Origin: an uncultured Bacilli bacterium
GTDB taxonomy: Bacteria > Bacillota_I > Bacilli_A > RF39 > UBA660
DNA length: 64,000 bases
Assembly: GCA_944363785.1 (NCBI GenBank)
Contig: CALVVF010000001.1
Location: 2,474-66,473, forward strand
Reading direction: 5' to 3'
Shown piece by piece: positions 3,328 through 63,998 of this stretch. A program made the translations under genes and the position numbers. Under the pieces are notes generated by a model, which made no database searches, was not told the origin of the DNA, and saw only the letters and a list, made by a program, of their open reading frames with translations. Numbering within the stretch: the stretch's first letter is position 1; each line of letters begins with the position of its first letter.

Positions 3328-3393
3328 AGTTTCTTTTTTTTGTTGTCTTTTCCTTTAAGACTCTTTATAATAAAAGTACTTTGGAGGGATCTT

Positions 3394-4842: not shown

Positions 4843-4851
4843 TAAAGAATC

Positions 4852-12866: not shown

Positions 12867-12867
12867 C

Positions 12868-13806
12868 ATGAAACCGGTGTATATTATTGTTTCTAAAGAT
12901 CCGATAACGATAGAAGAAAGAATAAAAGAAATCACTTCTACAGCTAGTCAGAGTGAAATTGTTCGTTATGATCTTCACGAAATTCCTATTCAAAGAGTAA
13001 TTGAAGATTTGGATACGTGTAATTTATTTAGTAGTCAAAAACTCATCATCGCTTCTCCTGCTGTCTTTTTATCCGGTGAAAAGACAAAAGGAGTAGTCGA
13101 TCATGATATCACAAAATTAGAAAGATATCTTGAAAATCCCAGTCCAGTTAATATTCTTATCTTAGTAACAGACACCCTAGATAAAAGAAAAAAGATAACT
13201 ACCACGCTTTCTACTTCTTCTACTACCCAAATTTTAGAAGGAGAAATTTCACCCCAAGAATATATTAAACAACATTTAGATGACTACCAAATCGATAGTA
13301 AAAGCATAAATTTCTTAATCGAATATTGTGGCTGTGATAGTGCTAAAATCATGATGGAATGGGAGAAATTAAAACTATATAAAATCGATACCAAAACGAT
13401 CAATATCCAAGACATTCAAACTGTCGTAACCAAAAGTATCGACGATAATATTTTTACCTTTATCGATAATCTATTATCAGGAAAGAAAAAAGAAGCATTC
13501 GAAATCTACCAAGATTTACTTCTCCATGGGGAACAACCCACTAGTATATTAAGTAAATTAGCCAATAAAATTCGTTTGCTTTATCAAGTAAAAACTTTAT
13601 TAAAAACCGGAAAAAGTGATATGGAAATTGCGAAATTACTCGCCGTTCATCCTTATCCTGTCAAATTAGCTAGAGAGTCATCATACCGCTATCCTGAAAA
13701 TCTCCTCTTAGCTTACCTAAAAAAACTTTCTACTATTGACTTAGAAATGAAAAGTGGAAAAATAACCGATAGTGTAGCTTTAGAAATGATGATGGCTAGT
13801 ATTTAG
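12868..13806 (+). CDS. holA: DNA polymerase III delta subunit
   Basis: Start ATG 12868 right after alaS stop; LDKRKK, EWEKLKLY, NIFTFID, VHPYPVKLA, IDLEMKSG. Confidence 0.92.
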   Translation: MKPVYIIVSKDPITIEERIKEITSTASQSEIVRYDLHEIPIQRVIEDLDTCNLFSSQKLIIASPAVFLSGEKTKGVVDHDITKLERYLENPSPVNILILVTDTLDKRKKITTTLSTSSTTQILEGEISPQEYIKQHLDDYQIDSKSINFLIEYCGCDSAKIMMEWEKLKLYKIDTKTINIQDIQTVVTKSIDDNIFTFIDNLLSGKKKEAFEIYQDLLLHGEQPTSILSKLANKIRLLYQVKTLLKTGKSDMEIAKLLAVHPYPVKLARESSYRYPENLLLAYLKKLSTIDLEMKSGKITDSVALEMMMASI

Positions 13807-22819: not shown

Positions 22820-22849
22820 AAAGTACTAGAAAAAAACTAGTGCTTTTTT
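22820..22849 (+). terminator. Intrinsic terminator after pgi
   Basis: AAGTACTAG-loop-CTAGTGCTT + T tract. Confidence 0.7.
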
Positions 22850-22962
22850 CGTACCAGAATGGTTAGCAAAATGTTAATTCTAAGAAAATTATACCCTTGT
22901 TTAAAGTAGTGAAAATGAGTATAATAATTTATAGAGTAGAGTAGAAAAGGAGTAATTAACTA

Positions 22963-24504
22963 ATGGATAAGATATTAAAAAAGAAATACGTACTTATTAT
23001 TATGATTTTAGCTGTTGTATGTATTTTGGCAGGTACTTCCTATGCCTATTTTACCGCAATGGCAGATTCTGATGATCAGATTGTCGATAGTGGAGTATTA
23101 CGGTTAACTTATCATACGGGGCAAAATATTGCTTTAGATAGTGTGTTCCCAGGAGAAGAAGCAGATGCCGGAATTCATGAGTTTACGATTGAGAATACGG
23201 GGACCTTAGAAGCAACCTATTATCTATATTTATCTAATGTAGTACTTCAAAAAGATGGGCAAGCTACCCAAAGTGAAAACTTGAAATGGAAATTATATAG
23301 TGCAGATGCAGATTATACGGAGCAAGAAGAAATTGCTTCTGGAGATTTTTCAGATGGTAGTAATACGATTGAACTTGATACGGATATAATCATTCAACCC
23401 CAAGAAAAACACTATTATATTTTAAAAATTTGGTTACAAGAAACCGGAAAACTACAAAATGAAGATCAAAGATTAAATTTAAGTACAATCGTAGAAGCAA
23501 CGACGATCAAGAAGAACATTAATAAAACCTTGATTAATACAATCAAAGGAGAAGCAGCACTTGATAATATAGCTAGTGAATTTGTTACTAGTTCCTCAGG
23601 AATAGACTTTTCACAAATCTCAAGTGATACAAATGGAAAAGGATTATATATTTTACATGGAACCGAAAATAATCCTAATCCAATCATGTATTACCGAGGA
23701 GCTGTAAAAAACAACAATGTAAAATTTGCGAACTTCTGTTGGAAAATTGTAAGAACAACCGAAACCGGAGGAGTAAAGTTAATTTATAATGGTAGTCCTG
23801 ATAGTAATGGACAATGTACTAATACTACAGGAAGTTCAACTGTGATACAAAATAGTGCATTTAATACTAATCTTAATGACAATGCTTACGTAGGTTATAT
23901 GTATGGGACATCAGAATCGTCTACTTATGAGGAAACACATAAAAATACGAATGATTCAACGATTAAGACGATAATCGATGAATGGTATAGGCAAAATATG
24001 ACAGAATATACTGAAGATCTTGAAGATACGGTATGGTGTAATGATCGAAGTGTAGTACAAGATAGTAGTTATTCAGGTACTGGTGCAGGAAAAGAAAGAA
24101 CAATGTATGGACCTAAGAATAGATTAGATACAAATAAAATTCCAAGTTTAGCTTGTGTAAATGAAAACGATCGATTTACAGTCAGTAGTGAGAATGGAAA
24201 TGGGGTCTTAACGTATCCAGCTGCATTATTAACAGCCGATGAATTTGTATATGCAGGAGCAGTTTATGGGCAAGGCAACAGTAATTATTATTTGTATAAT
24301 AATTATTCTTTGTGGTCTTTGTCGCCTAGCTATTTTAGTAGTAGCAATGCTGAAACCTTCAACGTGAATTCGGCAGGTTATCTCAGCAACCACTACACCC
24401 ACAATGCCTACGGCGCGCGTCCTTCCATATCTTTAAAGAAGGGAATTAAAGTAGAACTAGGAGGAGACGGAACAGCAGAAAATCCATATGTTGTAGTTGA
24501 ATAG
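22963..24504 (+). CDS. Secreted protein: SipW/TasA-like class-2 N-module plus head with DGR-target-like (C-type lectin fold) C-terminus
   Basis: Signal ending GTSYAYFTA; FTIENTGTL, LKWKLY, YILKIWLQETG..QNEDQ; C-terminal LWSLSP...GARPSISLK; paralogous to 60540 and 62072 over full length. Confidence 0.8.
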   Translation: MDKILKKKYVLIIMILAVVCILAGTSYAYFTAMADSDDQIVDSGVLRLTYHTGQNIALDSVFPGEEADAGIHEFTIENTGTLEATYYLYLSNVVLQKDGQATQSENLKWKLYSADADYTEQEEIASGDFSDGSNTIELDTDIIIQPQEKHYYILKIWLQETGKLQNEDQRLNLSTIVEATTIKKNINKTLINTIKGEAALDNIASEFVTSSSGIDFSQISSDTNGKGLYILHGTENNPNPIMYYRGAVKNNNVKFANFCWKIVRTTETGGVKLIYNGSPDSNGQCTNTTGSSTVIQNSAFNTNLNDNAYVGYMYGTSESSTYEETHKNTNDSTIKTIIDEWYRQNMTEYTEDLEDTVWCNDRSVVQDSSYSGTGAGKERTMYGPKNRLDTNKIPSLACVNENDRFTVSSENGNGVLTYPAALLTADEFVYAGAVYGQGNSNYYLYNNYSLWSLSPSYFSSSNAETFNVNSAGYLSNHYTHNAYGARPSISLKKGIKVELGGDGTAENPYVVVE

Positions 24505-24580
24505 AAGAATATGACTATTATAGAAAGTTATGCAAAAAAATAGATGAATAAAAACAAGAAGAAAAAGTTTTTTAAATATT

Positions 24581-24614
24581 AAGGGATGTTGAATGAATTT
24601 TCAGTATCCCTTTT
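24581..24614 (+). terminator. Intrinsic terminator
   Basis: AAGGGATGTTGAA...TTCAGTATCCCTTTT hairpin. Confidence 0.7.
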
Positions 24615-24687
24615 CATTTTCCAACTAAACTATATGAAATAAGTAATAAATAAAAAGTATGATATAATGTTTATGGTGATTGATTAA

Positions 24688-25248
24688 ATGAAAAAAATAA
24701 TTTATGTGACGGGTAATTGGTCAAAAATAATGAGTGCGAAGCAAATTCTAGAACCACTCGGAATAGAAGTAGACAATGTTAAATTAGAAACTACTGAGAT
24801 CCAGGCGGATACAGTAGAAGAAGTGGCAATACATTCTGCAAAGGAAGCAAGTGAAAGACTAAAGTGTACGGTTTTAAAAAATGATACAGGTTTATATGTT
24901 GAAGCTTTGAATGGCTTTCCTGGTCCATATACGCATTATGTTGATGAAAAACTTGGAGAAGAAGGACTTTTAAAATTATTAGAAGGCGAAAAGAATAGAA
25001 AGGCTTGTTTTATGGAAGCATTTGCTTATTGCGAATATAGTAAAGATCCAATTGTCTTTAAGTCCATTACAAAAGGAACAATTGCTCCTGAAAAATCTGG
25101 AAAGTATGGATGGAGTTGGGACTTTATCTTTATTCCTGAAGGAAAAGACAAGACGATGGGAAATTACCCTGATGAAGAAAGATGTCTAATGTGGAATACA
25201 GATGCTTATCATCAATTAGCTGAGTTTTTAAAGAATAAGGAAGATTAG
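24688..25248 (+). CDS. rdgB: Non-canonical purine NTP pyrophosphatase (RdgB/HAM1 family)
   Basis: VTGN..K, EIQAD, NDTGLYVEALNGFPGPY, WDFIFIP. Confidence 0.88.
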   Translation: MKKIIYVTGNWSKIMSAKQILEPLGIEVDNVKLETTEIQADTVEEVAIHSAKEASERLKCTVLKNDTGLYVEALNGFPGPYTHYVDEKLGEEGLLKLLEGEKNRKACFMEAFAYCEYSKDPIVFKSITKGTIAPEKSGKYGWSWDFIFIPEGKDKTMGNYPDEERCLMWNTDAYHQLAEFLKNKED

Positions 25249-25348
25249 TGATTTCAAATAAGAAATCTTGGACACAAAACAGCTATTATTTTTGACACTG
25301 TAAAAAGAAAATGTTAAAATGTATGTGTATTGAGTGAGGAGAAGAATC

Positions 25349-26212
25349 ATGGAAAACAAACTAGTAACGAACTTAATTATTGGAAGCAAAAATTTAATAA
25401 ATAAAGTGGGAATTTTGGTAAGACGACCATTACACCCAATTATTCTTAAACAAATGCCAAAAAGAAGAAATTTTGATCTCAAAGTATTAAACAAAAAACC
25501 AGAAGTTGTTGGGCCTGCCCTTTACATTGTTACACATTCAACTTGTCATGACGCACCAATTACTTGTGAAGTACTTAAAGATCATTTCTATCTTCTAGCT
25601 GGAAAACAAAAATTAGAACCCCTTGATCGCGTGTTTTTTCAACTAAATGGTAGACATTTTGTCGATCGTTCGGATTCCAAAAGTCAACAAAAAACAGCAG
25701 AAAAAATAGTACGTACAATAAATAACGGAACGAATTATGTTATCTATTCAGAACAAACTTGGTGTACTAAACCTAGTACACCTATCAATCATTTGCGTAG
25801 AGGGTGGGTAGATATTGCCAAAAAAGCCCATTGTCCTGTTATTCCACTTGCCTTAGAGTATTACGAATATACGGACAACATATGTTATGCTAAGTTCGGA
25901 GAACCATTCATTGTTGAGGAAAACGAGGATAAAATAGCAGTCAATAATCGATTAGAAGATACCTTAACAAGGTTGAAATTTGATATCTGGAATCAATTTC
26001 CTATTCAAGAAAGAGAAAAAATAGATTCTAATAGTTGGGATGAAATCATACAAAAAAGACAACAAGAATATCCTAAACTAGATCCTGAATTTGAAGCTCA
26101 ATTTGTAATTGATAGAGAAAATGATCCAGAGATAGTATTAAATTCTGAACCTTTCCAAACAGGTTTAAAAAAATTAGAAAATGGAACAAAAAATAAGCAA
26201 TTAATCAAATAG
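25349..26212 (+). CDS. Lysophospholipid/glycerol acyltransferase (PlsC-like)
   Basis: HxxxxD (HSTCHD), FVDR, YSEQT (FPEGT equivalent), PVIPLAL; RBS GAGGAG before ATG 25349. Confidence 0.8.
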   Translation: MENKLVTNLIIGSKNLINKVGILVRRPLHPIILKQMPKRRNFDLKVLNKKPEVVGPALYIVTHSTCHDAPITCEVLKDHFYLLAGKQKLEPLDRVFFQLNGRHFVDRSDSKSQQKTAEKIVRTINNGTNYVIYSEQTWCTKPSTPINHLRRGWVDIAKKAHCPVIPLALEYYEYTDNICYAKFGEPFIVEENEDKIAVNNRLEDTLTRLKFDIWNQFPIQEREKIDSNSWDEIIQKRQQEYPKLDPEFEAQFVIDRENDPEIVLNSEPFQTGLKKLENGTKNKQLIK

Positions 26213-26268
26213 ATATTTTCTCAAAAAAGTACATGTGATATACTATTAGTAGAATAGGGTGAAGTTTT

Positions 26269-28539
26269 ATGGCTAATTTGTATATTCCCGCATGTGCTTT
26301 TTTACTTGCATTACTTTTATTAATTATTTTTTTCGGAAGAAAGCGAGTGAATAACAAAGAAACTAGAATTTTTTCTGGATTAATTATCACTAGTTTCATC
26401 GATACCATTATGATGGTAGCTATTATTACAATTGGATACATAGACCCAACTCATTTTAGCTTATATATACTAAATCGAATTGATTTCGTTCAGTATTTAG
26501 GTTGGTCTTGGCTCTTCTTCTTATATATTTATTATGTTACTGTTTCTAATAAGAAAAATGGAGTCGATAAATATAATAGAATGATGAAAGTAACAAGAAT
26601 AATAAATACTATATCATTATTGTTTATTTTAACATTACCATTATATCTTCATAGTAAAAATGATGTAATGTACAGTTATGGTCCATCAGTTAGTATCTTG
26701 TATGTCTGTTGTGGTATTTATATTCTTTTATCTTTTGTAATTACATTATTTAATGCCAAAAATATCAAGAGTAAAAAGTATTTTCCTATTTTAGCACTAT
26801 TATTTTTAGGAACTTTAACACTTGGTATTCGAATGGTACAGCCTGGATTACTTGTTATTCCCTTTGTTATGGCATATATTAATTTGATTATGTATTTCAC
26901 GATTGAAAATCCAGATATTAAAATGATTGAAGAATTAAACGTAGCGAAGAGTTCCGCTGAAAAAGCTAACTTAGCTAAGTCAGAATTCTTATCTAGTATG
27001 TCTCATGAAATAAGAACTCCATTAAATGCTATCGTTGGATTTAGTGATTGTATTTTACGAGAAAACAATCTAGAAACAGCGAAAGATGATGCCAAAGATA
27101 TTATTACGGCTTCTCAAAACTTATTAGAAATTGTAAATGGAATTTTAGATATCTCTAAAATTGAAGCCAATAAAATGGAAATCAAAGAAATAGATTATAG
27201 CCCTAAAGAGACAATTTGTACTTTAGTAAAATTAATTGCCCCTAGAATTGGCGAAAAACCGATTGAGATGAAAGTAGGGATAAGTCCAGATTTACCTAAA
27301 GTTCTTTATGGAGATGTAAAGAAGGTTAAACAGATCGTGACGAATATTTTAACCAATGCGGTAAAGTATACGGATAAAGGTTATATTACGTTAACTCTAA
27401 ACTGTTTAAACCAACAGGATATTTCCACTTTAATCATTTCTGTTGAAGATACAGGTCGAGGAATAAAACCAGAAAAGATCAATAAACTGTTCACCAAGTT
27501 CGAGCGTTTAGATGAAGATAGGAATACGACGATAGAAGGAACAGGATTAGGACTTGCGATTACTAAACGATTAGTAGATATGATGGGTGGTAAGATCATC
27601 GTTCAAAGTAAATTTGGAGAAGGATCAAAGTTTACCGTTTATTTAAAACAAAGAATAAGCAAGTTAGATGCTGTTGAAGAAGAAAAGAAAGAAGCAGTAG
27701 CTAAACACTATCCAGGTAAGAAGATTTTAGTTGTCGATGACAATAAGATCAATCTAAAAGTAGCCACTAAGATTTTAAAAGAATTAGAAATTACGGTAGA
27801 AGAAGTAGATAACGGTTTTAGCTGTATCGAAAAAATTCAAAAAGAAAACTTCTATGACATGATTTTATTAGATGACATGATGCCAAGAATGAGTGGCTCT
27901 GAAACGTTAATAGAGTTAAAAAAGATTCCTACTTTTTCTTCTCCGGTTATTGCGTTAACCGCTAATGCGATCGAAGGAATGAAAGAAGAATATCTAAAAA
28001 AAGGATTTGATGGCTATATCGCTAAACCGATCGATCGTAATGAACTATATCAAACCCTAAACCACTTCTTTGATCAAGGCACAAAATCTTCAGCTGAAGA
28101 AAAAGTAGATTTCGGACCTCTACCTCAAGAAATTTATGAATTTAGTAGTCATTTTGATCAACAAAAAGAAACTTTTGATTTAGAATATCTAAAGAAAAAA
28201 GGAATCGATGTCGATAAAGGAATATCCTTACTAGGAGACGAAGAAACATATCGAGAAATGATGACGACATTCTTACAAGAAATTGATCAAAAGATAGAAA
28301 AAATGAAAACCTTGATCAGTGAGAAAAACACAAAAGAATATGCGGTATTGGCGCATGGAATAAAAAGTGATGCCAAGTATTTTGGCTTTACTAAGTTAGC
28401 CGATATTGCCTACCAACATGAATTAAAAGGTAAAGAAAACGATATCGATTTTATAGAAAAACATCATGAAGAATTCTTTGAAGAAATCAAAAAAACAAAA
28501 GAAATTATTCAGCCATACTTAGGGGAGGAACAAAAATGA
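26269..28539 (+). CDS. Hybrid sensor histidine kinase (multi-TM, HisKA, HATPase, REC, Hpt)
   Basis: [36 protein letters not shown]; REC ILVVDDN...LLDDMMP...YIAKP; Hpt AHGIKS. Confidence 0.95.
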
Positions 28540-43878: not shown

Positions 43879-45537
43879 ATGAGTCAGAAAAAATATTTTT
43901 TATTGATTATCATGCTACTCGGTGTTACTTTAGTAGTAACAGGAGTAAGTTATGCGTACTTTACCGCAATAGCGAATTCTGATGAACAAGTAGTAAAAAG
44001 TGGGGTATTAGAACTAACCTATCAGACAGAACAAAATATCTTGGCACAAAACATTATCCCAACCGAAGAAGAAAATGCCTCTATTCACAAATTTACTGTA
44101 GAAAATACGGGAACATTAGATGCCAATTATAATATTAGTTTTGTTGATATGAGCTTAACACAAAATAATATGGAGGTCACTTCATTTAATTTAAAATGGG
44201 CATTATATTTAGCCGATAGCGATTATACCGAAGGAACTCTTGTTAAAGAAGGTAACTTTTCCCCTAGTTCTGGTTATTTAAGTGGTGATGATGAGTTCGT
44301 CATTAAGACCAACATGGTTTTATCTCCTGAAGAAAGTCAAAGCTTTATTCTAAAAGTATGGTTACAAGAAACTGGTAAATTACAAAATGAAGATCAAGGA
44401 TTAAGTCTTAGATTAAAAATGCAGGTGGATACCTTAGAAAAACAAGAACCAACAGGAAAACAAAGTGTAATGCGAGAAAGAAATTATAATAATTCTACCG
44501 AGACCTTTTACCAATATAGTGATTCGATTACAAAAGTAGTATTCCAAAATAAAATGAGTCCTATTCCTGATGCTACCCATAGTTGGGATGTATCAAAAAA
44601 TAATGATGGTAACTGTATGGCTTATCTAGTATCAAACCAAGAAGAGACAGACCAAACTTATACTTTATATATTCAAGGAAATGATAAAATATATTTATCG
44701 AGCGGGTATTACTTATTTTCAGAACTTTCTAAATTAATCACAATAGAGAAAATAGAATATGTAGACACTTCTCAAGTAACAAATATGAGTAATATGTTTA
44801 ATAGATGCAGTAGTTTGACTAATATAGATTTAAGTCATTTTGATACTTCCCAAGTAACTAATATGCTTATGATGTTTAATAGATGCAGTAGTTTAACAAA
44901 CCTAGATGTTAGTCACTTTGATACATCACAAATAACAAGCATGAGTAGTATGTTTTCTGAATGCAGTAACTTAACTAATTTAAATTTAAGTAACTTTGAT
45001 ACTTCGCAAGTGACAGATATGAATAGAATGTTTTATCACTGCAAGAGTTTAGTAAATCTAGATGTTAATCACTTTGATACATCCCAAGTGATAGATATGA
45101 GTAATATGTTTTGGGGCTGTATTAATTTAACGAGTTTAAATTTAAGAAACTTCGATACATCAAATGTAACAAATATGAGAGAGATGTTTTATACTTGTGA
45201 TAGTTTAACAAGCCTAGATTTAAGTCATTTCAATACCTCGCAAGTAACAAATATGTATTATATGTTTAATGGATGTGATAATTTAAGAAGTTTGGATATC
45301 AGCAGTTTTGAAACATCACAAGTGACAGATATGGGTAGTATGTTTGCTAATTGTAATAATTTAACAAACTTAGATTTTCGCAATGCTATTTTTACAGCAG
45401 TAACTTCTTATGATAGCATGTTTTATGGTGTTCCATCTAGCATCCGAGTCATCGTAAAAGATGCTACAGCTCAGAGTTGGATACAAAATGCCCTAGATAC
45501 TGAAGGTGAAGGCGGTACAGCGATCATCGCATCATAA
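43879..45537 (+). CDS. Secreted protein: class-2 SipW/TasA-like N-module plus BspA/DUF285 LRR head
   Basis: GVSYAYFTA, FTVENTGTL, FILKVWLQETGKLQNEDQ; LDxSxFDTSQVTxMxxMF repeats. Confidence 0.88.
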   Translation: MSQKKYFLLIIMLLGVTLVVTGVSYAYFTAIANSDEQVVKSGVLELTYQTEQNILAQNIIPTEEENASIHKFTVENTGTLDANYNISFVDMSLTQNNMEVTSFNLKWALYLADSDYTEGTLVKEGNFSPSSGYLSGDDEFVIKTNMVLSPEESQSFILKVWLQETGKLQNEDQGLSLRLKMQVDTLEKQEPTGKQSVMRERNYNNSTETFYQYSDSITKVVFQNKMSPIPDATHSWDVSKNNDGNCMAYLVSNQEETDQTYTLYIQGNDKIYLSSGYYLFSELSKLITIEKIEYVDTSQVTNMSNMFNRCSSLTNIDLSHFDTSQVTNMLMMFNRCSSLTNLDVSHFDTSQITSMSSMFSECSNLTNLNLSNFDTSQVTDMNRMFYHCKSLVNLDVNHFDTSQVIDMSNMFWGCINLTSLNLRNFDTSNVTNMREMFYTCDSLTSLDLSHFNTSQVTNMYYMFNGCDNLRSLDISSFETSQVTDMGSMFANCNNLTNLDFRNAIFTAVTSYDSMFYGVPSSIRVIVKDATAQSWIQNALDTEGEGGTAIIAS

Positions 45538-55072: not shown

Positions 55073-56104
55073 GTGAACAAAGAAATTGATATGAAAAACT
55101 ACCAAATTAGGACGGATTTATTAATTGATTTATATACGGGAGAGTATGATAAAAACAAGGTTGATCTGCATACGGAGAAGGATAAAGAGATCGAAGTAGT
55201 CGATATTGTGATTAAAGATGAAGGCAATGAGTTTAAAAAGAAAAAGGGGAAATATACAACCGTTGCTTTTTTAGATGTAACCGATAAAGAAAATCAAAAA
55301 CGAGTAGAAGAAGTAGTTACGCGTTATCTAAAAGCGATGCTTAATCATTTAAAGATTAAAGAGGATGCTTCTTGTTTAGTAGTAGGACTTGGCAATAAAG
55401 AATCGACCCCAGACTCCTTAGGTCCAAAAGTCATCGAAAAAGTATTAGTCACTAAGTATCTATTCGATACTCCCGGAATAGAAGTATCTAGTAATTATCG
55501 TAATGTCTCTGCTTTTACCCCAGGTGTTTTAGCCACTACCGGAATTGAAAGCAGTGATATGATATTGGGAATTATCGAACGAACACATCCGGACTTTCTA
55601 ATTATTATCGATGCTTTAGCTTCCATTTCATTAGATAGAATCAACAAAACGATCCAAATGACCGATAGTGGAATTCATCCAGGTAGTGGGATTGGTAATA
55701 ACAGAAAAGCAATCGATCAAGAACACTTAGGAATTCCGGTAATTTCTATTGGTGTACCAACCGTAATTGAAGCGATTACGGTTGTTAGTGATACCATAGA
55801 ATACTTATATAAACACTTCGCATATAATAAAGAAAACATGAATAAAAATAAACTGATCCCGATTACTAAACGAAATTACCTAGATTATCCGGGAGAACTA
55901 GCTCCTCAAGAAAAAGAAGAATTATTTGGCCATATTGGCCTACTGAACGAAGAAGAACGAAAAGAACTAATTTTCGAGGTTCTAACCCCAATCGGTTATA
56001 ACATGATGGTAACACCCAAAGAAATTGATTTTTTAATGGAAAAACTATCTTCTGTAATCGCAAATAGTATAAATCGTACCCTTCATAAAAATTTCGACAT
56101 ATAA
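55073..56104 (+). CDS. gpr: Germination protease GPR
   Basis: RTDL, VVGLGN..STPDSLGP, IDALA, TIQMTDSGIHPGSGIGN, GVPTV, MVTPKEID. Confidence 0.97.
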   Translation: MNKEIDMKNYQIRTDLLIDLYTGEYDKNKVDLHTEKDKEIEVVDIVIKDEGNEFKKKKGKYTTVAFLDVTDKENQKRVEEVVTRYLKAMLNHLKIKEDASCLVVGLGNKESTPDSLGPKVIEKVLVTKYLFDTPGIEVSSNYRNVSAFTPGVLATTGIESSDMILGIIERTHPDFLIIIDALASISLDRINKTIQMTDSGIHPGSGIGNNRKAIDQEHLGIPVISIGVPTVIEAITVVSDTIEYLYKHFAYNKENMNKNKLIPITKRNYLDYPGELAPQEKEELFGHIGLLNEEERKELIFEVLTPIGYNMMVTPKEIDFLMEKLSSVIANSINRTLHKNFDI

Positions 56105-56147
56105 TTCGGAAGAAGCCTGCTATAGTAAACGTAAAGTAGGTGATAAA

Positions 56148-57131
56148 ACGAAAAAAAGAACAAGAAAAAAGAAAAAAAGTTATCTATTTAAACTAGTGGT
56201 TATACTCATTGTATTTGGAATTTCGTTTTCTTATACGATGAGTAAAATCTCTTCTTCCAAACCGATCAGTAACAGTGAATTTGTCCGTTTATTACTAGCC
56301 GAGGGAAACCCTAATTTTTCCTACGAAAAAGATAAAGAAAAATCCCCCTTAGACTCTATTCTTTCTATCTTTAATATCGATTTAAAAAATCCCTTTCAAA
56401 TGATCAAAAATCACTATTCATACCAGGACTATTCTTCAAACTCCAGCGATGAAAAGAGCCAACCAACAGGTAGTGAATATGTTCCTGATCCTTATCCCGA
56501 TAATGAAGAAGAAAAAGAACCGATCGTCTATTTATATAACACACATCAATTAGAAGAATACAAGCAAGAAAACCAAGAAAGCTACAACGTTACTCCTAAT
56601 GTGATGATGCTCAGTTATATTGTCCGAGAAAAATTAAACGACAAAGGAATACCGACAATAGTGGAAGAAAACGATGTTTCCGCTTTTCTTCAAACAAACA
56701 ACTGGAACTATGCTTCTAGCTATAAAGTAACTAAAATGTTAATGACCGACGCCAAAGAGAAAAATCCCTCCTTACAATATTTCATCGATCTACACCGTGA
56801 TTCCGTTTCAAAAAAGATCTCAACGGCGACGATCAATGGAAAAGGTTATGCCAAAATTTTATTCATTATCGGCTTAGAAAACCCCAATTACCAAGCAAAC
56901 TTAGAGGTAACCACTACCATCAATAATATGTTAGAAGAAAAATATCCAGGCATTACTAGAGGGATCTATAAAAAAGAAGGTAAAGGCGTAAATGGCGTTT
57001 ATAATCAGGATTTTGATAAAAATACGATTCTGTTTGAAGTAGGAGGAGCAGAAAACACAATTGAAGAAGTGTTAAATACTGCGGATGCTATTGCTACTGT
57101 ATTAGCAGAATATATAGGAGAACACTCATGA
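56148..57131 (+). CDS. spoIIP: Stage II sporulation protein P; probable start is an ACG codon at 56148
   Basis: YLYNTHQLEEY, DLHRDS, YNQD, LFEVGG..NT; follows gpr; RBS AGGTGA 4 nt before in-frame ACG. Confidence 0.92.
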   Translation, partial: TKKRTRKKKKSYLFKLVVILIVFGISFSYTMSKISSSKPISNSEFVRLLLAEGNPNFSYEKDKEKSPLDSILSIFNIDLKNPFQMIKNHYSYQDYSSNSSDEKSQPTGSEYVPDPYPDNEEEKEPIVYLYNTHQLEEYKQENQESYNVTPNVMMLSYIVREKLNDKGIPTIVEENDVSAFLQTNNWNYASSYKVTKMLMTDAKEKNPSLQYFIDLHRDSVSKKISTATINGKGYAKILFIIGLENPNYQANLEVTTTINNMLEEKYPGITRGIYKKEGKGVNGVYNQDFDKNTILFEVGGAENTIEEVLNTADAIATVLAEYIGEHS

Positions 57132-57448
57132 AAAATAATATTATCCGGATTATCTTTCTTACTTTAGTTTTTCTCTTTATCGGTCTTTATAGTGCTTCAA
57201 ATGCTGGGTATATCGATTATCAAGCACGAAACCAAACAGTATTAACCGAAAACCAAATCAAACAGTTTGAAGAAGATGTAAAAAATAACCGCCCAATCGA
57301 TATTGAGAACTATGTGATCAATAAAGAAGAAACATACAATAATAATCTTTCTAAATTATCTCTAAAAATATCTAATGCGATTGGAAAAACATTTCAAAAT
57401 ACCTTAGATTATCTATTTGGTAAATTAGAAAGTGTAATGAATGGATAA
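57128..57448 (+). CDS. Small membrane-anchored protein at the yqxA position
   Basis: N-terminal TM; 4-nt overlap with spoIIP; synteny with Bacillus gpr-spoIIP-yqxA-lepA. Confidence 0.7.
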   Translation: MKNNIIRIIFLTLVFLFIGLYSASNAGYIDYQARNQTVLTENQIKQFEEDVKNNRPIDIENYVINKEETYNNNLSKLSLKISNAIGKTFQNTLDYLFGKLESVMNG

Positions 57449-57450
57449 CT

Positions 57451-57484
57451 GTAGTCATCAAAAGCGGTGACTACTTTTTCTTTT
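57451..57484 (+). terminator. Intrinsic terminator
   Basis: GTAGTCATC-loop-GGTGACTAC + T tract. Confidence 0.75.
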
Positions 57485-57601
57485 GATAGAACGTGTAAAC
57501 TACTAATTATTTTCCGTTCTTACTTGACGAAGAAAAATACTTTCATTAAAATAGTATTAGAATAATATAAGCCATTAGACTATATAAGGTAGTGTGAGTA
57601 A

Positions 57602-59008
57602 ATGAAAATAATGAAAAAAATAAGGCCCAAACTAAAATATATAATCATCCCGGTATTATTTCTTTGTCTATGTGCGATAAGTAGTTCCTATTCATATTAT
57701 AAGTTAACTAAGGAAAATAAAAATGCCCTAACGTTAAATGGGGTAGAATTAGACTATACGATTACTTCGGATAGTTTAGAAAATAAAACGATTCAAGTAC
57801 CAGCTGGTTCTAAACAAACAATTACTTTCGATGTAACAAGTAATAATGAAAAGGATGCAGAATATGAAGTGTATTATCAAATCATAGAAGCACTAAGTCA
57901 GGAAGAAAAAGAGAAGATCAGTGTTACTTGTTATGAAAATATTAGTGAGAGTTTACCAACCGGTGAGATAACACCAGACGGAGTTAAAACGATTATTGTC
58001 GAAATAGAAAACAACAGTACATCCCCTGTAACGATTGAATTAGGTTGTCAAGGTGGATTAATAGGAAGAGACCTAGTCCTAGAACAAGGAAATAAGATCC
58101 CAGTTGTCTCTATCCCAATCTTACAAAGTGAAGATTCCAATGAAGCTTTCTGGCAGTACAAAAGTTCAATTACTAAAGTAATATTCCAAAACCAAAAACA
58201 AAGTATAAGTAATGCCGCATATCAACATGATATTTCCGAAGCAAACGATGGTAGTATTATGGCTTATTTAGTATTAAACAGCGATCAATCAACTTATACA
58301 GCTTATATCCAAAGTGATGGGGTTATGCAAGCTAATTCGGATTGTTATGAGTGGTTTGCGGATTTTAGCAATTTGCAAAGTATCGAAGGCTTAGAGTATT
58401 TTGATACTTCACAAGTGACAAGTATGTGGATGATGTTTTTTAATTGTAGAGGGCTAACCAACTTAGATCTACGTAATTTCGATACAAGCAAGGTGACAGT
58501 TACAAGCTCCATGTTTGGTTGGTGTACTAATTTGACGAGTTTAGATATCAGTAATTTTAATACTTCACAAGTAGATAATATGGCTTCAATGTTTGAAGGT
58601 TGCCAAAGCCTAACAAGTCTAGATTTAAGTCATTTCGATACTTCATAAGTGACAGACATGTCTAGTCTCTTTTGGTACTGCGATGCTTTAGTGCAAGTAG
58701 ATGTCAGTAGTTTCGACACATCAAAAGTGGAAAATATGGGTGGTATGTTTAATGAGTGTAGGAGTTTAACTACTGTAGATTTAAGTAATTTTGACACCAC
58801 ACAAGTAACCAATATGTGGAAGATGTTCGATAACTGTTTTAGTTTAACTAGCTTAGATTTAAGAAATGCTACTTTTACAGCAGTAACTGACTCTAGGGAG
58901 ATGTTTGGTAACAACCCATCTAACATCCAAATTATTGTAAAAGATGCTACAGCTCAAACTTGGATAAAAGACAAGTTAGGAAGTGAAGGTAGCGTAATTA
59001 TTGCTTAA
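57602..59008 (+). pseudogene. Class-1 N-module plus BspA LRR gene interrupted by in-frame TAA at 58646-58648
   Basis: GAT ACT TCA TAA GTG where sister repeats read GAT ACT TCA CAA GTG (DTSQV); frame continues to a C-terminus homologous to the 43879 protein (IVKDATAQ.WI). Confidence 0.88.
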
Positions 59009-59539
59009 TCGTAACATTGATATAAGAAAGGAATGATACTTAAAATGAAAAAAATAAAGCCCAAATTAAAATATATAATTATTGCGGTATTATTTATCTG
59101 TTTATGTGCAATCAATAGTTCTTATTCTTATTATAAATTAACCAAAGAAAATAAAAATGCCTTAACGTTAAATGGAGTAGAATTAACGTATACGATTACC
59201 TCGGATAGTTTAGAAAATAGAAAAATCCAAGTACCGTCTGGTTCTAAACAAACAGTGACAATGAATATAACAAGCAATAATGAAAAGGACACGGAATATG
59301 AAGTCTATTATCAAATTATGGAAGCACTAAGTCAGGAAGAAAAAGAGAAAATTAGTGTGGTTTGTTATGAAAATATTAGTGAGAGCTTACCGACCGGGGA
59401 GATAACACCAAACGGCACTAAAACGATTATTGTTGAAATAGAAAATAACAGTACATCTCCTGTAACAATTGAATTAGGTTGCCAAGGCGGATTAATAGGA
59501 AGAGAGCTAGTCTTAGAACAAGGGAATAAGATCCCTGTT
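57611..59539 (+). repeat. Direct repeat pair of 495 bp (57611-58105 and 59045-59539) encoding the class-1 N-module
   Basis: Colinear, highly similar DNA and protein from MKKI.PKLKY to GNKIPV, then abrupt divergence. Confidence 0.9.
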
Positions 59540-60523
59540 ACCATCGCTATCAGAGAATTAGTGGAGATGATAAAACCAGAAGCAGTATTGGATAATATTC
59601 AAAGTACTTATGTAAGCAGTCCTACAGGAATTGATTTTTCACAAACATCAAGTGATACAAACGGAAAAGGACTATATATTTTACATGGAACAGAAAATGA
59701 TGCTAATCCAATCATGTATTACCGAGGGGATGTAAAAAATAACAATGTAAAATTCGCAAACTTCTGTTGGAAAATAGTTAGAACAACGGAAACAGGAGGA
59801 GTAAAGCTAATCTATAATGGTAGTCCAAATAATAATGGGCAATGTACAGCTTGGGGAAGTTCATCGATGTTATCAGACAGTGTTTTTAATACGAATGATA
59901 ATGACAACGCATATGTCGGCTATATGTATGGTACAGCGGGATCATCTACTTATGAAGAAACACATAAAAATACGAACGATTCAACGATTAAGACGGTAAT
60001 TGATGAGTGGTATAGTCGAAATATGACAGAATATACAGATCAGTTAGAAGATACAGTGTGGTGTAATGATCGAAGCATTTCCCCATTTGATTCAGGAACA
60101 GGAGCGGGTGCAGATTATACAGATTATGGAGCAAGATACAGATTAATGATAAATAAGATACCTACTTTAGAATGTGTAAATGAAAATGATCGTTTCACAG
60201 TAAGTAGTGAGAATGGTAATGGGGCTTTAACTTATCCGATTGCGTTATTAACAGCAGATGAAATCGCATATGCAGGTATAATTGATGGGAGAGAGAATAA
60301 GAATAATTATTATTTGGATAATGCTGATCTCTGGTGGACTATGTCCCCTAACTATTTCTATAGCTACGATGCTCGTGTGTACTTTCTGAACACAACGGAT
60401 AGCCTCAGCTACTCCAGCTCATCCAATTCCGTCGGTGTGCGTCCCTCTATTTCTCTTAAGAAAGGCACTAAAGTAGAAAGCGGAGAAGGAACAGTAGAAA
60501 ATCCTTATGTTATACTTGAATAA
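59033..60523 (+). CDS. Secreted protein: class-1 N-module plus head with DGR-target-like C-terminus
   Basis: Signal ending SSYSYYKL; head shared with 22963; WWTMSP...GVRPSISLK. Confidence 0.82.
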   Translation: MILKMKKIKPKLKYIIIAVLFICLCAINSSYSYYKLTKENKNALTLNGVELTYTITSDSLENRKIQVPSGSKQTVTMNITSNNEKDTEYEVYYQIMEALSQEEKEKISVVCYENISESLPTGEITPNGTKTIIVEIENNSTSPVTIELGCQGGLIGRELVLEQGNKIPVTIAIRELVEMIKPEAVLDNIQSTYVSSPTGIDFSQTSSDTNGKGLYILHGTENDANPIMYYRGDVKNNNVKFANFCWKIVRTTETGGVKLIYNGSPNNNGQCTAWGSSSMLSDSVFNTNDNDNAYVGYMYGTAGSSTYEETHKNTNDSTIKTVIDEWYSRNMTEYTDQLEDTVWCNDRSISPFDSGTGAGADYTDYGARYRLMINKIPTLECVNENDRFTVSSENGNGALTYPIALLTADEIAYAGIIDGRENKNNYYLDNADLWWTMSPNYFYSYDARVYFLNTTDSLSYSSSSNSVGVRPSISLKKGTKVESGEGTVENPYVILE

Positions 60524-60539
60524 AGTAGGAGGGAGTAAT

Positions 60540-62057
60540 ATGAAAAAGAAGAAAATAATCGTTTGTGTATTGATTATAGTTGGTGTTTTAGCTTTAATAG
60601 GTATAAGTTATGCCTATTTTACAGCTTTGGAAAACTCGGATGAACAAATAGTGAAAAGTGGTGTACTAAGTCTAACCTATACAAATGGAAAGAATATATT
60701 ATTAGAAAATATAATTCCTTCTGAAGAAACAGAAGCTGGTATTCATGAATTTACGATAGAAAATACTGGGACCTTAGATGCAATATATTATTTATATTTA
60801 GATAATATTACCCTACAGAAAGAGGGAGAAGATACCCAGAGTAGTAATTTAAAATGGAAATTATATAGTGCCGATGAAGATTATACAGAGCAAGACGTAA
60901 TTGCTTCTGGAGATTTTTCGGACGGGAACAACACAATTGAACTAGATACGGATATTGCGATTGCCCCTCAAGAGAAACACTACTATATTTTAAAGATTTG
61001 GTTACAAGAAACCGGTGAATTACAAAATGAAGATCAGGGATTAAAATTTAGTACGATAGTTGAAGCAACAACGGTGAAAAAGAAAGTGAATAAAGCCCTA
61101 GTAAACGTGATTAAAGAAGAAGCAGTACTCGATAATATCGCTAGTGAGTTTGTTACTAGTTCTACAGGTATTGATTTTAGTCAAGTATCTAGTGATACTA
61201 ACGGTAAAGGTGTATATATCTTGCATGGAACAGAAAGTAACCCTAACCCAATTATGTATTACCGAGGAGATGTAAAAAATAATAATGTAAAATTCGCAAA
61301 CTATTGTTGGCAGATTGTAAGAACGACCGAAACAGGTGGAGTGAAATTAATTTATAATGGAGAGCCAGACGCAAGCGGAGCTTGTAATTCAGCTGCTAAA
61401 GAGATAGCTTTTAGTACTTTCAATAATAGGGATATATATACTAATGCTGGAGTTGACTATATGTACGGTAGTACAGATATTTCAGCTACTTACGAAGAAA
61501 TGCATACCAACATAAATGATTCGGCAATTAAAACTGTAATTGATGGTTGGTACGAAGAAAATATGACAGAGTATACAGATAAGTTAGAGGATACAGTATG
61601 GTGTAACGATAGAAGTATCTCCTTGAACTCACCAGGCGATGGAACAGATATTGAGGATGATACTCAATACGGAGCTTATTATCGATTATATGACAATAAA
61701 ACACCTAGTTTAGAATGTGTAAATCCTAATGACCGTTTTACCGTAAGCGAAGAGAATGGAAACGGTGCCTTAACCTATCCAGTAGCCTTATTAACAGCGG
61801 ATGAGGTGGCCTATGCGGGAGGAGTACACCAACAAAAAAGCAACACCTATTTAGCTACAAAAGACCATGTTTGGACACTATCACCTGGTTTTTATAGTCC
61901 AACGATAGCATATCATTTCACCCACGATATAGATGGACTTGAGATTGCGGTGTATGGTCAATTGAATGTTAGACCTTCAATTTCCTTAAAACGTGGAGTC
62001 AAAGTGACAGCTGATGGAGACGGAACCGCTGACAATCCATATATAGTAGTTGAATAG
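60540..62057 (+). CDS. Secreted protein: class-2 N-module plus lectin-like head
   Basis: RBS GGAGG before ATG 60540; GISYAYFTA; VWTLSP...NVRPSISLK. Confidence 0.82.
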   Translation: MKKKKIIVCVLIIVGVLALIGISYAYFTALENSDEQIVKSGVLSLTYTNGKNILLENIIPSEETEAGIHEFTIENTGTLDAIYYLYLDNITLQKEGEDTQSSNLKWKLYSADEDYTEQDVIASGDFSDGNNTIELDTDIAIAPQEKHYYILKIWLQETGELQNEDQGLKFSTIVEATTVKKKVNKALVNVIKEEAVLDNIASEFVTSSTGIDFSQVSSDTNGKGVYILHGTESNPNPIMYYRGDVKNNNVKFANYCWQIVRTTETGGVKLIYNGEPDASGACNSAAKEIAFSTFNNRDIYTNAGVDYMYGSTDISATYEEMHTNINDSAIKTVIDGWYEENMTEYTDKLEDTVWCNDRSISLNSPGDGTDIEDDTQYGAYYRLYDNKTPSLECVNPNDRFTVSEENGNGALTYPVALLTADEVAYAGGVHQQKSNTYLATKDHVWTLSPGFYSPTIAYHFTHDIDGLEIAVYGQLNVRPSISLKRGVKVTADGDGTADNPYIVVE

Positions 62058-62071
62058 AAGGTGAGAGTAAG

Positions 62072-63595
62072 ATGAATAAGAAGACTTTAATTGTTTGTTT
62101 ATTAATTGTAGCTGTTACTTTAATTTTAATGGGAGCAAGCTATGCCTATTTTACGGCTATAGGAACTTCTGATGAACAGGTAGTACAAAGTGGTGTGTTA
62201 GAGCTAACATATTTAACCGGTAAAGATATTACATTAGAAGGTATTTTTCCATCAGAAGAGGTAGATGCAGGAGTTCATCAGTTTGCGGTTGAAAATACCG
62301 GTACTTTAGATGCAACATATTATATGTATTTAGATAATATTGTTCTACAAAAAAATGGACAAGATACCCATAGTGAAAACTTGAAATGGAAACTATATAG
62401 TGCCGATGAAAATTATATAGAGCAAAGCGAGATAATAAACGGTAGTTTCATAGATGGAAATAGTACGATCGAACTAGATACTGAATTAGCTATTCGTCCA
62501 GGTGAGAAACATTATTATATTCTAAAAATATGGTTACAAGAAACCGGACAAGCACAAAATGAAGATCAAGGTTTAACTTTTAGTGCGCAAGTAATTGCAA
62601 CGACAGAACAGAAAACCATTAATAAAGCTTTGGTAGATACCATTAAAACAGAAGCAGTACCAGATAATATCGCTAGTGAGTTTGTTACTAGTCCTACAGG
62701 AATTGACTTTGGGAGGTTTTCTAGTGATACGAACGGCAAAGGATTATACACTGTACATGGAACAGAAAATAATCCTAATCCCATTATGTATTATCGTGGA
62801 GATGTAAAAAACAATAATGTAAAATTTGCGAACTTCTGTTGGAAAATAGTTAGAACGACCGAGACTGGTGGAGTGAAGTTAATCTATAATGGAGAACCTG
62901 ATGAAAATGGACAGTGTACGGCAATGTGGGATGATACTACTATAGGAACTAGTAGCTTTAATGCTAATAGTAATGACAATGCCTATGTAGGCTATATGTA
63001 TGGAACGCCAGGTTCATCTACTTATGAAGATACACATAAAAATACGAATGATTCAACAGTTAAATCAGTAATCGATACATGGTATAGTGAGAATCTAGCT
63101 TCTTATACAGCTAAACTAGAGGATACCGTATGGTGTAATGATCGAAGTTTCACATCCGGAACAGGAATAGGAAATACAGAAACAGCTTATAGTCCATATA
63201 GTAGGATTTTAGCTAGGGAACAACCAACTTTAGAATGTTCAAATGAAAACGATCGTTTCACGGTAAGTGAAGCAAACGGTAATGGAGCTTTAACCTATCC
63301 AATTGCCTTATTAACTGCAGATGAAGCAGTATATGCTGGTACATTACCATTAATTACACAAACCAATAAAGATCATTATTTATATAATAATGATACATGG
63401 TGGCTTCTTTCTCCTTATTGGCATTATGAAGACGATGCACGTGTAATGGTTATTTATCAAAGTGGCAATCTAGGTAATGATAATGTCTTTGATGGCGATT
63501 ACTGTGGGGTTCGTCCTGCCATTTCCCTCAAAAAAGGAACTAAAGTAGAAGCTGGAGGAGACGGAACGGTAGAAAATCCTTATGTCGTTAAATAA
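62072..63595 (+). CDS. Secreted protein: class-2 N-module plus lectin-like head
   Basis: GASYAYFTA; WWLLSP...GVRPAISLK. Confidence 0.82.
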   Translation: MNKKTLIVCLLIVAVTLILMGASYAYFTAIGTSDEQVVQSGVLELTYLTGKDITLEGIFPSEEVDAGVHQFAVENTGTLDATYYMYLDNIVLQKNGQDTHSENLKWKLYSADENYIEQSEIINGSFIDGNSTIELDTELAIRPGEKHYYILKIWLQETGQAQNEDQGLTFSAQVIATTEQKTINKALVDTIKTEAVPDNIASEFVTSPTGIDFGRFSSDTNGKGLYTVHGTENNPNPIMYYRGDVKNNNVKFANFCWKIVRTTETGGVKLIYNGEPDENGQCTAMWDDTTIGTSSFNANSNDNAYVGYMYGTPGSSTYEDTHKNTNDSTVKSVIDTWYSENLASYTAKLEDTVWCNDRSFTSGTGIGNTETAYSPYSRILAREQPTLECSNENDRFTVSEANGNGALTYPIALLTADEAVYAGTLPLITQTNKDHYLYNNDTWWLLSPYWHYEDDARVMVIYQSGNLGNDNVFDGDYCGVRPAISLKKGTKVEAGGDGTVENPYVVK

Positions 63596-63616
63596 TAGCT
63601 AGAAAATATATATAAA

Positions 63617-63655
63617 GCTGCAGGTAATCCTAAATAAACTGCAGTTTTTATTTTG
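63617..63655 (+). terminator. Probable intrinsic terminator after the surface-protein cluster
   Basis: GCTGCAG...CTGCAGT + T tract. Confidence 0.55.
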
Positions 63656-63740
63656 TTTTTCTAAGGTTATGTTTGATAAAACTTTTACTTAAATCTTTCT
63701 TCTTTTTCTGGTATCTGGTATAATGAATCTGGTGGTAAAA

Positions 63741-63998
63741 ATGAGAAAAGAGAATATACGTAATTTTTCAATCATTGCGCATATTGATCATGGTAAAAGT
63801 ACTCTTGCCGATAGATTATTAGAAGCAACTGGTGCTCTTTCTAAACGAGAATTAAAAGAACAGACTTTAGACTCGATGGATATCGAAAGAGAACGTGGAA
63901 TTACGATTAAATTAAATGCTGTAGAGTTAAATTATCATACTAAGGGAGAAGATTATATCTTACATTTAATCGATACCCCCGGACATGTTGATTTTTCT
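63741..63998 (+). CDS. lepA: Elongation factor 4 (LepA), 5' part, truncated by window end (not in ORF track)
   Basis: Manual translation [28 protein letters not shown]...[10 protein letters not shown]...[11 protein letters not shown]; TGGTATAAT promoter upstream. Confidence 0.97.

Follow-up and report, generated by a model that had tools for sequence, protein, structure and literature searches.

Near the end of the window analyzed here, a 64,000-nucleotide (nt) stretch of an uncultured Bacilli genome (C1:2474-66473), four genes follow one another on the plus strand, each encoding a predicted secreted protein made of two modules: an N-terminal module of one of two kinds, N1 or N2, and a head that is either a leucine-rich repeat (LRR) domain or a lectin-like domain. 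Coordinates without a contig prefix are window positions. The genome (G000) is assembled as 1.38 Mb in 36 contigs, is 94.7% complete, and has about 32% G+C; it comes from a spore-forming Bacilli bacterium that lives in the chicken gut, has a small genome, and is uncultured. Gene 1 (57602-59008) joins N1 (about 57602-58111) to an LRR head of the PARCEL/DUF285 type (DUF285, 124.6 bits; TIGR02167, 173 bits, 6 repeats) and contains an in-frame stop: its open reading frame (ORF), 57602-58648, ends at a TAA at 58646-58648, and the same frame resumes across 58649-59008 (DTS*VTD). Gene 2 (59033-60523) joins N1 (59033-59557) to a lectin-like head (59558-60523) bearing, at about 60281-60433, a codon footprint of the type left by a diversity-generating retroelement (DGR). 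Gene 3 (60540-62057; N2 at 60540-61094, head at 61095-62057) and gene 4 (62072-63595; N2 at 62072-62626, head at 62627-63595) both combine N2 with a lectin-like head that lacks this footprint, and a GGAGGG precedes the ATG of gene 3 at 60540. Because the intergenic gaps are only 24, 16, and 14 nt, the four genes, all on one strand, probably form one operon. By consensus scan only, a promoter-like site lies 5' of gene 1 (57524-57552) and a terminator-like hairpin lies 3' of the gene upstream (57451-57474), both on the plus strand. The original prediction, made from the window sequence, had read the array as N1+LRR, N1+lectin-like, and twice N2+lectin-like; this reading holds, except that gene 1 is stop-interrupted.

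The four array genes are paralogues within a multigene family that is specific to the lineage and encodes secreted proteins built of two modules. Searches of the whole genome with the four modules (tblastn and blastp) recovered 22 headed and 4 headless copies, and one further protein with an N1-like front and an F5/8-type-C head brings the family to about 27 genes. The N2+lectin build is represented by nine copies (one with a nonsense codon, one with most of N2 deleted in frame), N2+LRR by seven (two with nonsense codons), N1+LRR by four (one nonsense, one frameshift), and N1+lectin by two, while the four headless N2 genes stand in tandem at C23:11199-13621, two of them at 12410-12967 and 12989-13621. 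In the F5/8 protein (C27:4821-6275, 484 aa), a distant N1-like front (124 residues aligned at 29% identity) is joined to a third type of head, an F5/8 type C discoidin domain (44.8 bits). Altogether the family takes up about 38 kb (about 12,660 codons), which is 2.8% of G000, and its copy number is far beyond chance. Three members lie elsewhere in the window on the plus strand, with the module contents that had been predicted for them: a gene at 989-3327, with a divergent N1 and a 15-repeat LRR head (775 codons, out of frame); one at 22963-24504, with N2 and a lectin-like head (DGR-type footprint at about 24262-24411); and one at 43879-45537, with N2 and a PARCEL LRR head (DUF285, 261.7 bits). 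Outside G000, 15 of 24 further species in the genus have N2-like modules, and the 16 genomes sampled from other families have none. Public protein sets yielded 4116 matches to a full-length family protein at E<=1e-5 among 7998 candidates scored, all of them unnamed apart from a single "hypothetical protein" of a chicken-gut Bacilli metagenome-assembled genome.

Sequence comparison places N2, a module of about 150 residues, in the TasA/camelysin family. PF12389 (Peptidase_M73) was matched at E<=0.01 by 11 of 14 N2 modules, the best at 2.3e-8, and the N2 of gene 4 searched alone scored 24.5 bits against a cut-off of 22.5, aligning to profile positions 15-188 of 196. With full-length proteins as queries, the 43879 protein scored 28.8 bits, that of gene 4 fell under the cut-off at 20.7 bits, and that of gene 3 gave no match. 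The SipW-cognate model TIGR04088 had 16 matches in G000, namely 15 N2-family genes and a neighboring gene for a 342-aa protein (C8:38576); eight exceeded the 19-bit cut-off, including 43879 (20.6 bits), while 22963 (15.5 bits) stayed below it. From the signal motif on, N1 and N2 can be aligned in register (hhalign probability 88.8%, E 2.5e-6, 124 columns), and Peptidase_M73 clusters are among its nearest neighbors in the ESM Atlas (feature score 0.92), which we treat as a lead only; N1 is probably a remote TasA-like module. A protease role like that of camelysin was rejected, because the 25 family proteins all lack an HExxH motif.

In all seven window genes the predicted signal peptide ends at S[YF][AS]Y[FY], as originally noted; the motif takes the form G-x-S-Y-A/Y-F-T-A in N2 and S-Y-S/Y-Y-K in N1. 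Across headed and headless copies, this predicted cleavage-site stretch is the most conserved part of N2, with a mean pairwise identity of 0.74 compared with 0.48 for the rest of the module. SipW-type peptidases, whose presence the original prediction had proposed as a check, are encoded in the genome: three match TIGR02228 at 91.8, 83.1, and 59.3 bits, over the 51.85 cut-off, and two are weaker (31.7 and 31.6 bits). A gap of 111 nt separates a SipW-type gene at C8:34514-35785 (423 aa, 58.4 bits) from the N2+lectin gene downstream of it, and one of 152 nt separates a weak, degenerate SipW-type copy at C8:49505-50083 from another N2+lectin gene, again downstream. Further SipW paralogues lie at C4:8280-8903 and C8:41034-41630. 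These observations bear on a reading in which the N terminus is never cleaved, so that its hydrophobic stretch (14-20 residues after a Lys-rich start) anchors the protein in the membrane and the N-module serves as a wall-spanning base holding the head at the surface. The family proteins have no other anchor and the genomes of relatives are very small, both of which suit such an arrangement. However, conservation peaks in the motif right after the hydrophobic stretch, a SipW-cognate model is matched over its cut-off by eight genes, and several SipW-type peptidases, two of them beside family genes, have been retained in a genome of 1.38 Mb; we therefore consider an uncleaved membrane anchor unlikely.

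The SipW-type genes of contig C8 have further neighbors of a similar kind. Within 20 kb (C8:37688-58315) there are three SipW-type genes, an N2+lectin gene, and a gene for a 2740-aa surface protein. At least seven more genes there encode small secreted proteins whose hydrophobic start is followed by a SipW-like motif (TYAWFTA, AYAWFVF, TLTAYES...), and none of the seven had a Pfam match. The region may be a fiber-building locus.

Headless subunits, also named beforehand as something to look for, are present as the tandem of four N2 genes, which has one-to-one orthologues in two sister species, G001 and G022. In all three species a gene for a 571-aa membrane protein of the protein O-mannosyltransferase type (PMT, 83.9 bits; 88% identical between species) lies 3' of the tandem (C23:9252-13621 in G000), a neighbor that hints at glycosylation of the headless subunits.

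The proteins carry no evident means of attachment other than the N-module. As originally stated, they lack LPXTG, lipobox, and C-terminal anchor: none of 25 proteins has a sorting motif, a lipobox, or a hydrophobic C-terminal tail, and the one sortase gene of G000 lies elsewhere. The WxL domain (PF13731) had no match in G000 at E<=1, and the best DUF916 (PF06030) match reached 12.1 bits against a cut-off of 27.3. A weak WxLIP_PGBD match in gene 2 (18.6 bits) was dropped, G000 having neither WxL nor an over-cut-off DUF916.

Apart from the discoidin domain, the heads fall into two types. The LRR heads are ordinary PARCEL repeats, scoring 173-460 bits with TIGR02167 (6-15 repeats) and 124.6-325.3 bits with DUF285; at the upper end, the 989 gene scores 460.5 bits with 15 repeats over 1246-3327, and 43879 scores 266 bits with TIGR02167. 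The lectin-like head is a domain of about 320 residues of which PF19789 (DUF6273) touches only the last 55-60; against a cut-off of 23.5, gene 4 scored 27.4 bits and gene 2 was just under at 23.2, while gene 3 and 22963 had no match. A structural model of the gene 4 head, built with 47 diverse homologues, reached a pLDDT (predicted local distance difference test) of 96.8 and resembled residues 33-303 of 9qa6, the immunoglobulin A (IgA) peptidase ThomasA of Thomasclavelia ramosa (Z 13.0, 200 aligned residues, 20% identity; Foldseek E 8.8e-6). This is the sole strong relative of solved structure. Weaker matches include a Bacteroides fimbrial protein (4eps, Z 6.8), the Legionella Lcl C-terminal domain (5.9), and the DGR target TvpA (4.6), and dozens of C-type lectin domains match at Z 4-5. 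The modeled structure thus indicates that "lectin-like" is correct at the level of fold, a conclusion likewise drawn for phage DUF6273 domains (PMC10743442). The head domain is very common: at E<=0.001 it has 6021 cluster representatives, and the proteins that contain it are 200-4900 residues long.

TasA-like front modules joined to swappable heads suggest adhesin-decorated fibers. In the explanation that we think best, and hold with middling confidence, the SipW-cleaved N-module would be a fiber handle that displays LRR or lectin-like heads as adhesins. The protein would be exported and cut by a SipW-type peptidase at the conserved motif. Cleavage would expose an N-terminal strand, and this strand together with the N-module would act as an attachment or polymerization handle, inserting the protein by donor-strand exchange into TasA-type fibers, probably made mainly of the four headless paralogues; the LRR or lectin-like heads would then be displayed as adhesins. 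The family itself expanded as a small number of old fusions duplicated, each founding its own lineage (N1+LRR, N1+lectin, N2+LRR, N2+lectin, and N1-like+discoidin). We infer the first and last steps, cleavage and head display, from family membership and gene neighborhood, and the middle ones, strand exposure and fiber insertion, from the analogy with TasA and the lack of any other anchor. TasA fibers do assemble via an N-terminal donor strand after SipW cleavage (PMC9674648).

Several observations weigh against the fiber handle. No sipW or headless gene adjoins the array, and in the two sister species the headless tandem has no sipW alongside. Genes 4 and 3 themselves fall under the 19-bit TIGR04088 cut-off (17.4 and 15.1 bits), and N1 matched neither PF12389 nor TIGR04088 (three N1 proteins in the Pfam scan, E<=0.01), such that the designation of both N-modules as TasA/SipW-like in the original prediction stands for N2, which exceeds the PF12389 cut-off, but lacks a direct family match for N1. 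The structural evidence for N2 is weak as well. The full-length AlphaFold model had a pLDDT of 56, within which the N2 part formed an all-beta sandwich at 60-88; Foldseek placed the TasA fiber 8aur at rank 4 (E 9.8e-4), with the archaeal donor-strand filaments 7ueg and 7pnb also among the top rows. Alignment of N2 to 8aur with VIA-align gave a Z of 6.7 over 133 residues at rank 13, level with many beta-sandwiches of a generic kind (top Z 7.8). TasA is also larger than mature N2. The N2 profile found no TasA chain among PDB sequences at E<=10, and neither it nor a profile of the full-length family matched any PDB chain. We know of no solved TasA fiber in which every subunit carries a 320-residue C-terminal head. 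Finally, none of the runs listed as holding the array is an RNA run.

Some of these points speak for the chief rival of the fiber handle, in which the proteins are monomeric binders, secreted or loosely associated with the wall, whose N-module is only a beta-sandwich stalk or folding domain remaining after a SipW-type signal peptide; no fiber would form, and the headless paralogues would serve some other function. In fold, N2 resembles generic beta-sandwich and carbohydrate-binding-module-like domains as closely as it does TasA, the array has no sipW or headless gene next to it, and in sister species the same N-module fronts multidomain adhesins of the usual build. In all nine sister-species proteins examined, an N2-like module precedes a larger C-terminal region, with Bact_surface_Ig-like (immunoglobulin-like) spacers in seven, Laminin_G_3 in three, and no Pfam match in two. 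Yet a monomer with no LPXTG, lipobox, WxL, or other anchor, as in the 25 proteins here, would be lost to the gut lumen. Family membership at the sequence level also spans the whole N2 module, and the cleavage motif and the strand after it are conserved between headed and headless copies, both of which argue against a mere stalk. We regard monomeric binders as a possible but less probable explanation. The sister-species proteins (from G004, G007, G010, G012, G015, G019, G020, and G023) are 589-998 residues long, with fronts such as SYAFFTT... and SYAMFRF..., and eight of the nine end in a tail of the type W-F-x-R-x-G-x-W...F-R-[IL]-V-L, which resembles another C-type-lectin or DGR-target end.

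The presence of all four combinations of N-module and head had been taken as a sign of combinatorial shuffling. The combinations are indeed all there, but phylogenetic trees indicate that shuffling was overstated. In the N2 tree, the eight lectin-bearing copies form one clade (support 89/93) and the seven LRR-bearing copies another (99/98), with head changes at the minimum possible number, and the LRR-cap tree groups the four heads linked to N1 in a single clade (92/90). The lectin-head tree is a star, in which none of eight inner branches is well supported. Modules and heads are thus congruent for N2 and for the LRR heads, an outcome that the original prediction had itself named as refuting it. 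Ongoing domain shuffling is not supported, and the four architectures are instead old lineages that were enlarged by duplication.

The one exception to this congruence is the tandem N1 pair. In the N1 tree, gene 1 (LRR) is sister to gene 2 (lectin) (91/98), and a tree holding the lectin-bearing N1s together was rejected (approximately unbiased test, P = 0.006); the LRR head of gene 1, in conflict with this, is sister to a head on contig C35 (97/90). The two N1 copies resemble each other along about 500 nt, and this likeness breaks off sharply at the start codon on one side and just past GNKIPV on the other, directly after which the heads switch, as had been noticed. The copies had also been described as near-identical for 495 bp; their identity is actually about 87% in DNA and 89-90% in protein, and "near-identical" is too strong because there are many synonymous differences. 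We conclude from these trees that N1 was exchanged or gene-converted once between adjacent genes 1 and 2, and, because the DNA of the pair has diverged by about 13%, that this happened long ago. The N1 pair is one of the observations that could be explained if the array were an active contingency locus in this strain, its heads swapped by recombination, mutated by a DGR, and turned ON and OFF. However, the pair is only about 87% identical, head type is otherwise congruent with N subclade, and even the closest paralogue pair still differs at 90 synonymous codons.

The DGR component of this reading draws on a real signature. Seven of the 11 lectin heads have a DGR-type footprint over about 50 codons ahead of G-V-R-P, in which C occupies 30-38% of third positions, compared with 6-12% elsewhere in the gene, and A occupies 4-10%, compared with 35-43% elsewhere. 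The footprint is present in gene 2 (third-position C of 33%, compared with 10% in the rest of the gene) and in 22963 (32% compared with 9%), and absent from gene 3 (17% compared with 12%) and gene 4. A GC-rich element lies 3' of the stretch. Across six heads, 34 of 108 columns are invariant, just 2 of them A. Between 22963 and its closest paralogue, the stretch has 24 nonsynonymous and 3 synonymous differences, whereas N2 has 9 and 33, respectively; averaged over all paralogue pairs, codon-position divergence is ordinary.

A pattern search for the framework of this stretch across 29 genomes of the genus found it in G000, G001, and G044. In both sister species, an Asn-codon-rich copy of the framework, the template repeat (TR), lies beside a reverse transcriptase (RT) gene (510 aa; RVT_1, 68.1 bits). 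The variable region (VR) of an intact N2+lectin gene of G001 differs from the TR at 19 of 32 A sites and at none of 76 non-A sites, and five VRs of G044 differ at 13-17 of 32 A sites and 1-3 of 76 non-A sites. The lectin heads are DGR targets in these species, where their hypervariable loops are true variable regions. The G001 RT (L060:5839-7371, on G001:C35) has a weak MutS_I match in its C-terminal part (21.6 bits), and its orthologue in G044 is split into ORFs of 193 and 145 aa.

In G000, the situation is different. Compared with the TR of the sister species, its heads are changed at 16-27 of 76 non-A sites, the framework search found head genes only and no TR, and neither the RT nor the TR of the sister species has a homologue in the genome. 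The only RT of G000, on contig C32, has a TR that does not match the family heads, and blastn of C32 found no family head. The syntenic site in G000 (on C18) is contiguous without the cassette: the gene that in G001 flanks the cassette here adjoins two N2+lectin genes across a gap of only 210 nt. Likewise, no DGR lies beside 22963: the ORF upstream encodes a phosphoglucose isomerase, and 20000-26500 contains no TR-like repeat. The claim of DGR mutagenesis was thus half borne out, by the footprints here and by true TR/VR pairs in sister species, but not by any cognate TR or RT in G000. We conclude that the DGR that once diversified the lectin heads is gone from G000, and that the variable regions are frozen. 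The footprints in 7 of 11 heads nonetheless count among the observations in favor of the contingency-locus reading.

The C32 element (L026:1-7707) is a complete DGR cassette in its own right, with a TR at 2178-2285, a 375-aa RT, a 179-aa accessory ORF, and a 576-aa transposase-like ORF. Its target, a type-IV-pilin-like protein of 444 aa, has an N-methylation motif in addition to a DUF6273 head (62.9 bits), and where TR and VR disagree, the TR usually has an adenine. The end of the contig repeats its first 1923 nt, and the contig may therefore be circular or a collapsed duplication.

The ON/OFF component rests on disrupted copies. Six of the 22 headed copies are disrupted, by nonsense codons in four cases, a frameshift in one, and an internal deletion in one. 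The frameshift is that of the 989 gene, in which an A8 tract (992-999) follows the ATG (989-991) and leaves the frame off by one; A9 would restore it, and the tract could be either a slipped-strand switch or a fixed frameshift. The idea of ON/OFF switching draws half support from this frameshift, the four nonsense codons, and the deletion, but together they look like decay, and nonsense codons of different kinds are not reversible switches. Both TAA and TAG are among the stops; the disrupted copies are best read as decay and not recoding.

Rearranged alleles in other samples would be a further mark of a contingency locus. Those runs in which the array was found are chicken-gut metagenomes: it is present in pieces in contigs of three of them (X2, X3, and X4; Logan, 90% likeness), and raw reads of a fourth, X12, contained 10 matching reads at 90-95% likeness. 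Some contigs join array genes differently. In run X3, some contigs connect the start of gene 1 with the start of lepA (57621-63769); in others, the end of gene 2 is followed, after 10 foreign letters, by the start of gene 4 (60522-62067). These joints fit strains without the array or without gene 3, although their sides are just 22 and 27 letters. Alternative joints such as 60522 to 62067 also speak for head swapping, but these have sides of only 22-29 letters in metagenome contigs at 90% likeness, and the sides of the joints are short overall (22-50 letters). With the paralogues this divergent, no TR in G000, a sole RT whose TR does not match, and a syntenic site assembled without the cassette, we consider an active contingency locus in this strain very improbable.

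Upstream of the array on the plus strand (55073-57448) lie genes for a germination protease and SpoIIP, both identified by Pfam, and then a 106-aa ORF without a Pfam match, for which the proposed label "yqxA-like" is unconfirmed. Downstream, at 63723-63998 on the plus strand, is the 5' end of a lepA-like translational GTPase gene (GTP_EFTU, 103 bits), in agreement with the predicted placement of the array ahead of lepA. The site between the SpoIIP neighbor and lepA holds a single N1+LRR gene in G022, and in G044 a lectin-head gene adjoins the lepA orthologue (600 aa). Two other parts of the window adjoin family genes. A 2559-aa GH94-family (glycoside hydrolase family 94) protein with supersandwich and glucoamylase-like domains is encoded at 13941-21620 (Glyco_hydro_94, 378 bits), directly upstream of the phosphoglucose-isomerase-like gene and 22963; this gene takes up 7.7 kb of the 1.38 Mb. 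Directly past the 989 gene, 3340-8001 holds ORFs of 500 and 1049 aa with no Pfam match at E<=0.001.

TasA-type fibers are known as plain structural biofilm scaffolds, and the TasA group also includes CalY/camelysin of B. cereus, BsaA of Clostridium perfringens, and the archaeal bundling pilin AbpA. The last has been linked to PF12389 by HHpred (PMC9245690). The family described here is like the TasA-TapA-SipW system of B. subtilis in that N2 matches PF12389 across the module, in its SipW-type motif and peptidases, in being sortase independent, and in having headless subunits of TasA-like size in the same genome. It differs in that the module carries a ligand-binding head of 300-600 residues, in having more than 20 copies compared with one or two, and in being scattered outside any tapA-sipW-tasA operon (no search for a TapA-like gene was made). 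In addition, N1 is unrecognized by the family model, and polymerization, known for TasA, is here a proposal. Among the matches listed, the literature on TasA, Peptidase_M73, and SipW describes headless TasA-type systems only. Full-text searches found no paper containing both SipW and leucine-rich repeat and none joining diversity-generating retroelement and TasA, and no published DGR target with a TasA-like N-module was found. What is new here is the combination of TasA-family handles with adhesin payloads, their multigene expansion, and the link to a DGR in sister species. If the N-module is a fiber handle, a widespread sortase-independent assembly route also displays adhesins, and these adhesins can be DGR targets. 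This would provide a testable model of how very small-genome uncultured gut Bacilli attach to surfaces, whether of hosts or of microbes.

The heads have their own relatives. The same repeats as in the LRR heads occur in PARCEL/BspA-type LRR proteins (TIGR02167, PF03382) of Mycoplasma, Listeria, and oral bacteria, but the known members are lipoproteins or wall-anchored, whereas here the repeats follow a TasA-like N-module with no lipobox or LPXTG. ThomasA, the solved relative of the lectin-like head, likewise comes from gut Bacillota, and its N-terminal domain resembles the head. The depositors of 9qa6 annotate this domain as DUF6273 and report no large effect of it on catalysis (PMC12402451). 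The ThomasA domain precedes an M64 peptidase on a sortase-anchored protein, in contrast to the family here, which is without a peptidase domain. Since the sole solved relative is an unexplained domain of an IgA protease, the ligand of the head would annotate thousands of proteins. With the DGR targets TvpA of Treponema denticola (2y3c) and the phage "tentaclins" (DUF6273; PMC10743442), the heads share a C-type-lectin-like fold. As in known targets, the variable stretch lies just ahead of the C-terminal strand, has NNY codons, and is followed by a GC-rich element; unlike them, the heads have no cognate TR or RT in G000. The frozen variable regions are a natural example of the fate of DGR targets after loss of the retroelement.

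The closest parallel in design is the WxL (Elr) pilus of Enterococcus faecalis, described in a preprint as a donor-strand fiber with modular tip adhesins, likewise from Gram-positive Bacilli, whose payloads are most commonly LRR solenoids but also include lectins and Ig-like spacers (bioRxiv 10.64898/2026.10.17.759780). The preprint also proposes adhesins that both donate and accept strands and are seated along the fiber (bioRxiv 10.64898/2026.10.17.759780). By analogy, the headed subunits of G000 could themselves donate and accept strands and form a mixed, multivalent fiber of LRR and C-type-lectin heads from more than 20 paralogues, with the lectin heads rewritten by a DGR in sister species; we offer this extension tentatively, as doubtful though conceivable. 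If true, it would constitute a sortase-independent, chaperone-free "programmable" adhesive fiber of Gram-positive gut bacteria. The two systems differ in build: the WxL pilus has its WxL module mostly at the C terminus, a DUF916/DUF3324 chaperone, and a sortase anchor, whereas the handle here is N-terminal and TasA-like. A multivalent fiber of this kind would thus represent a second, independent origin of the design seen in WxL pili, in which an attachment module is combined with a variable payload.

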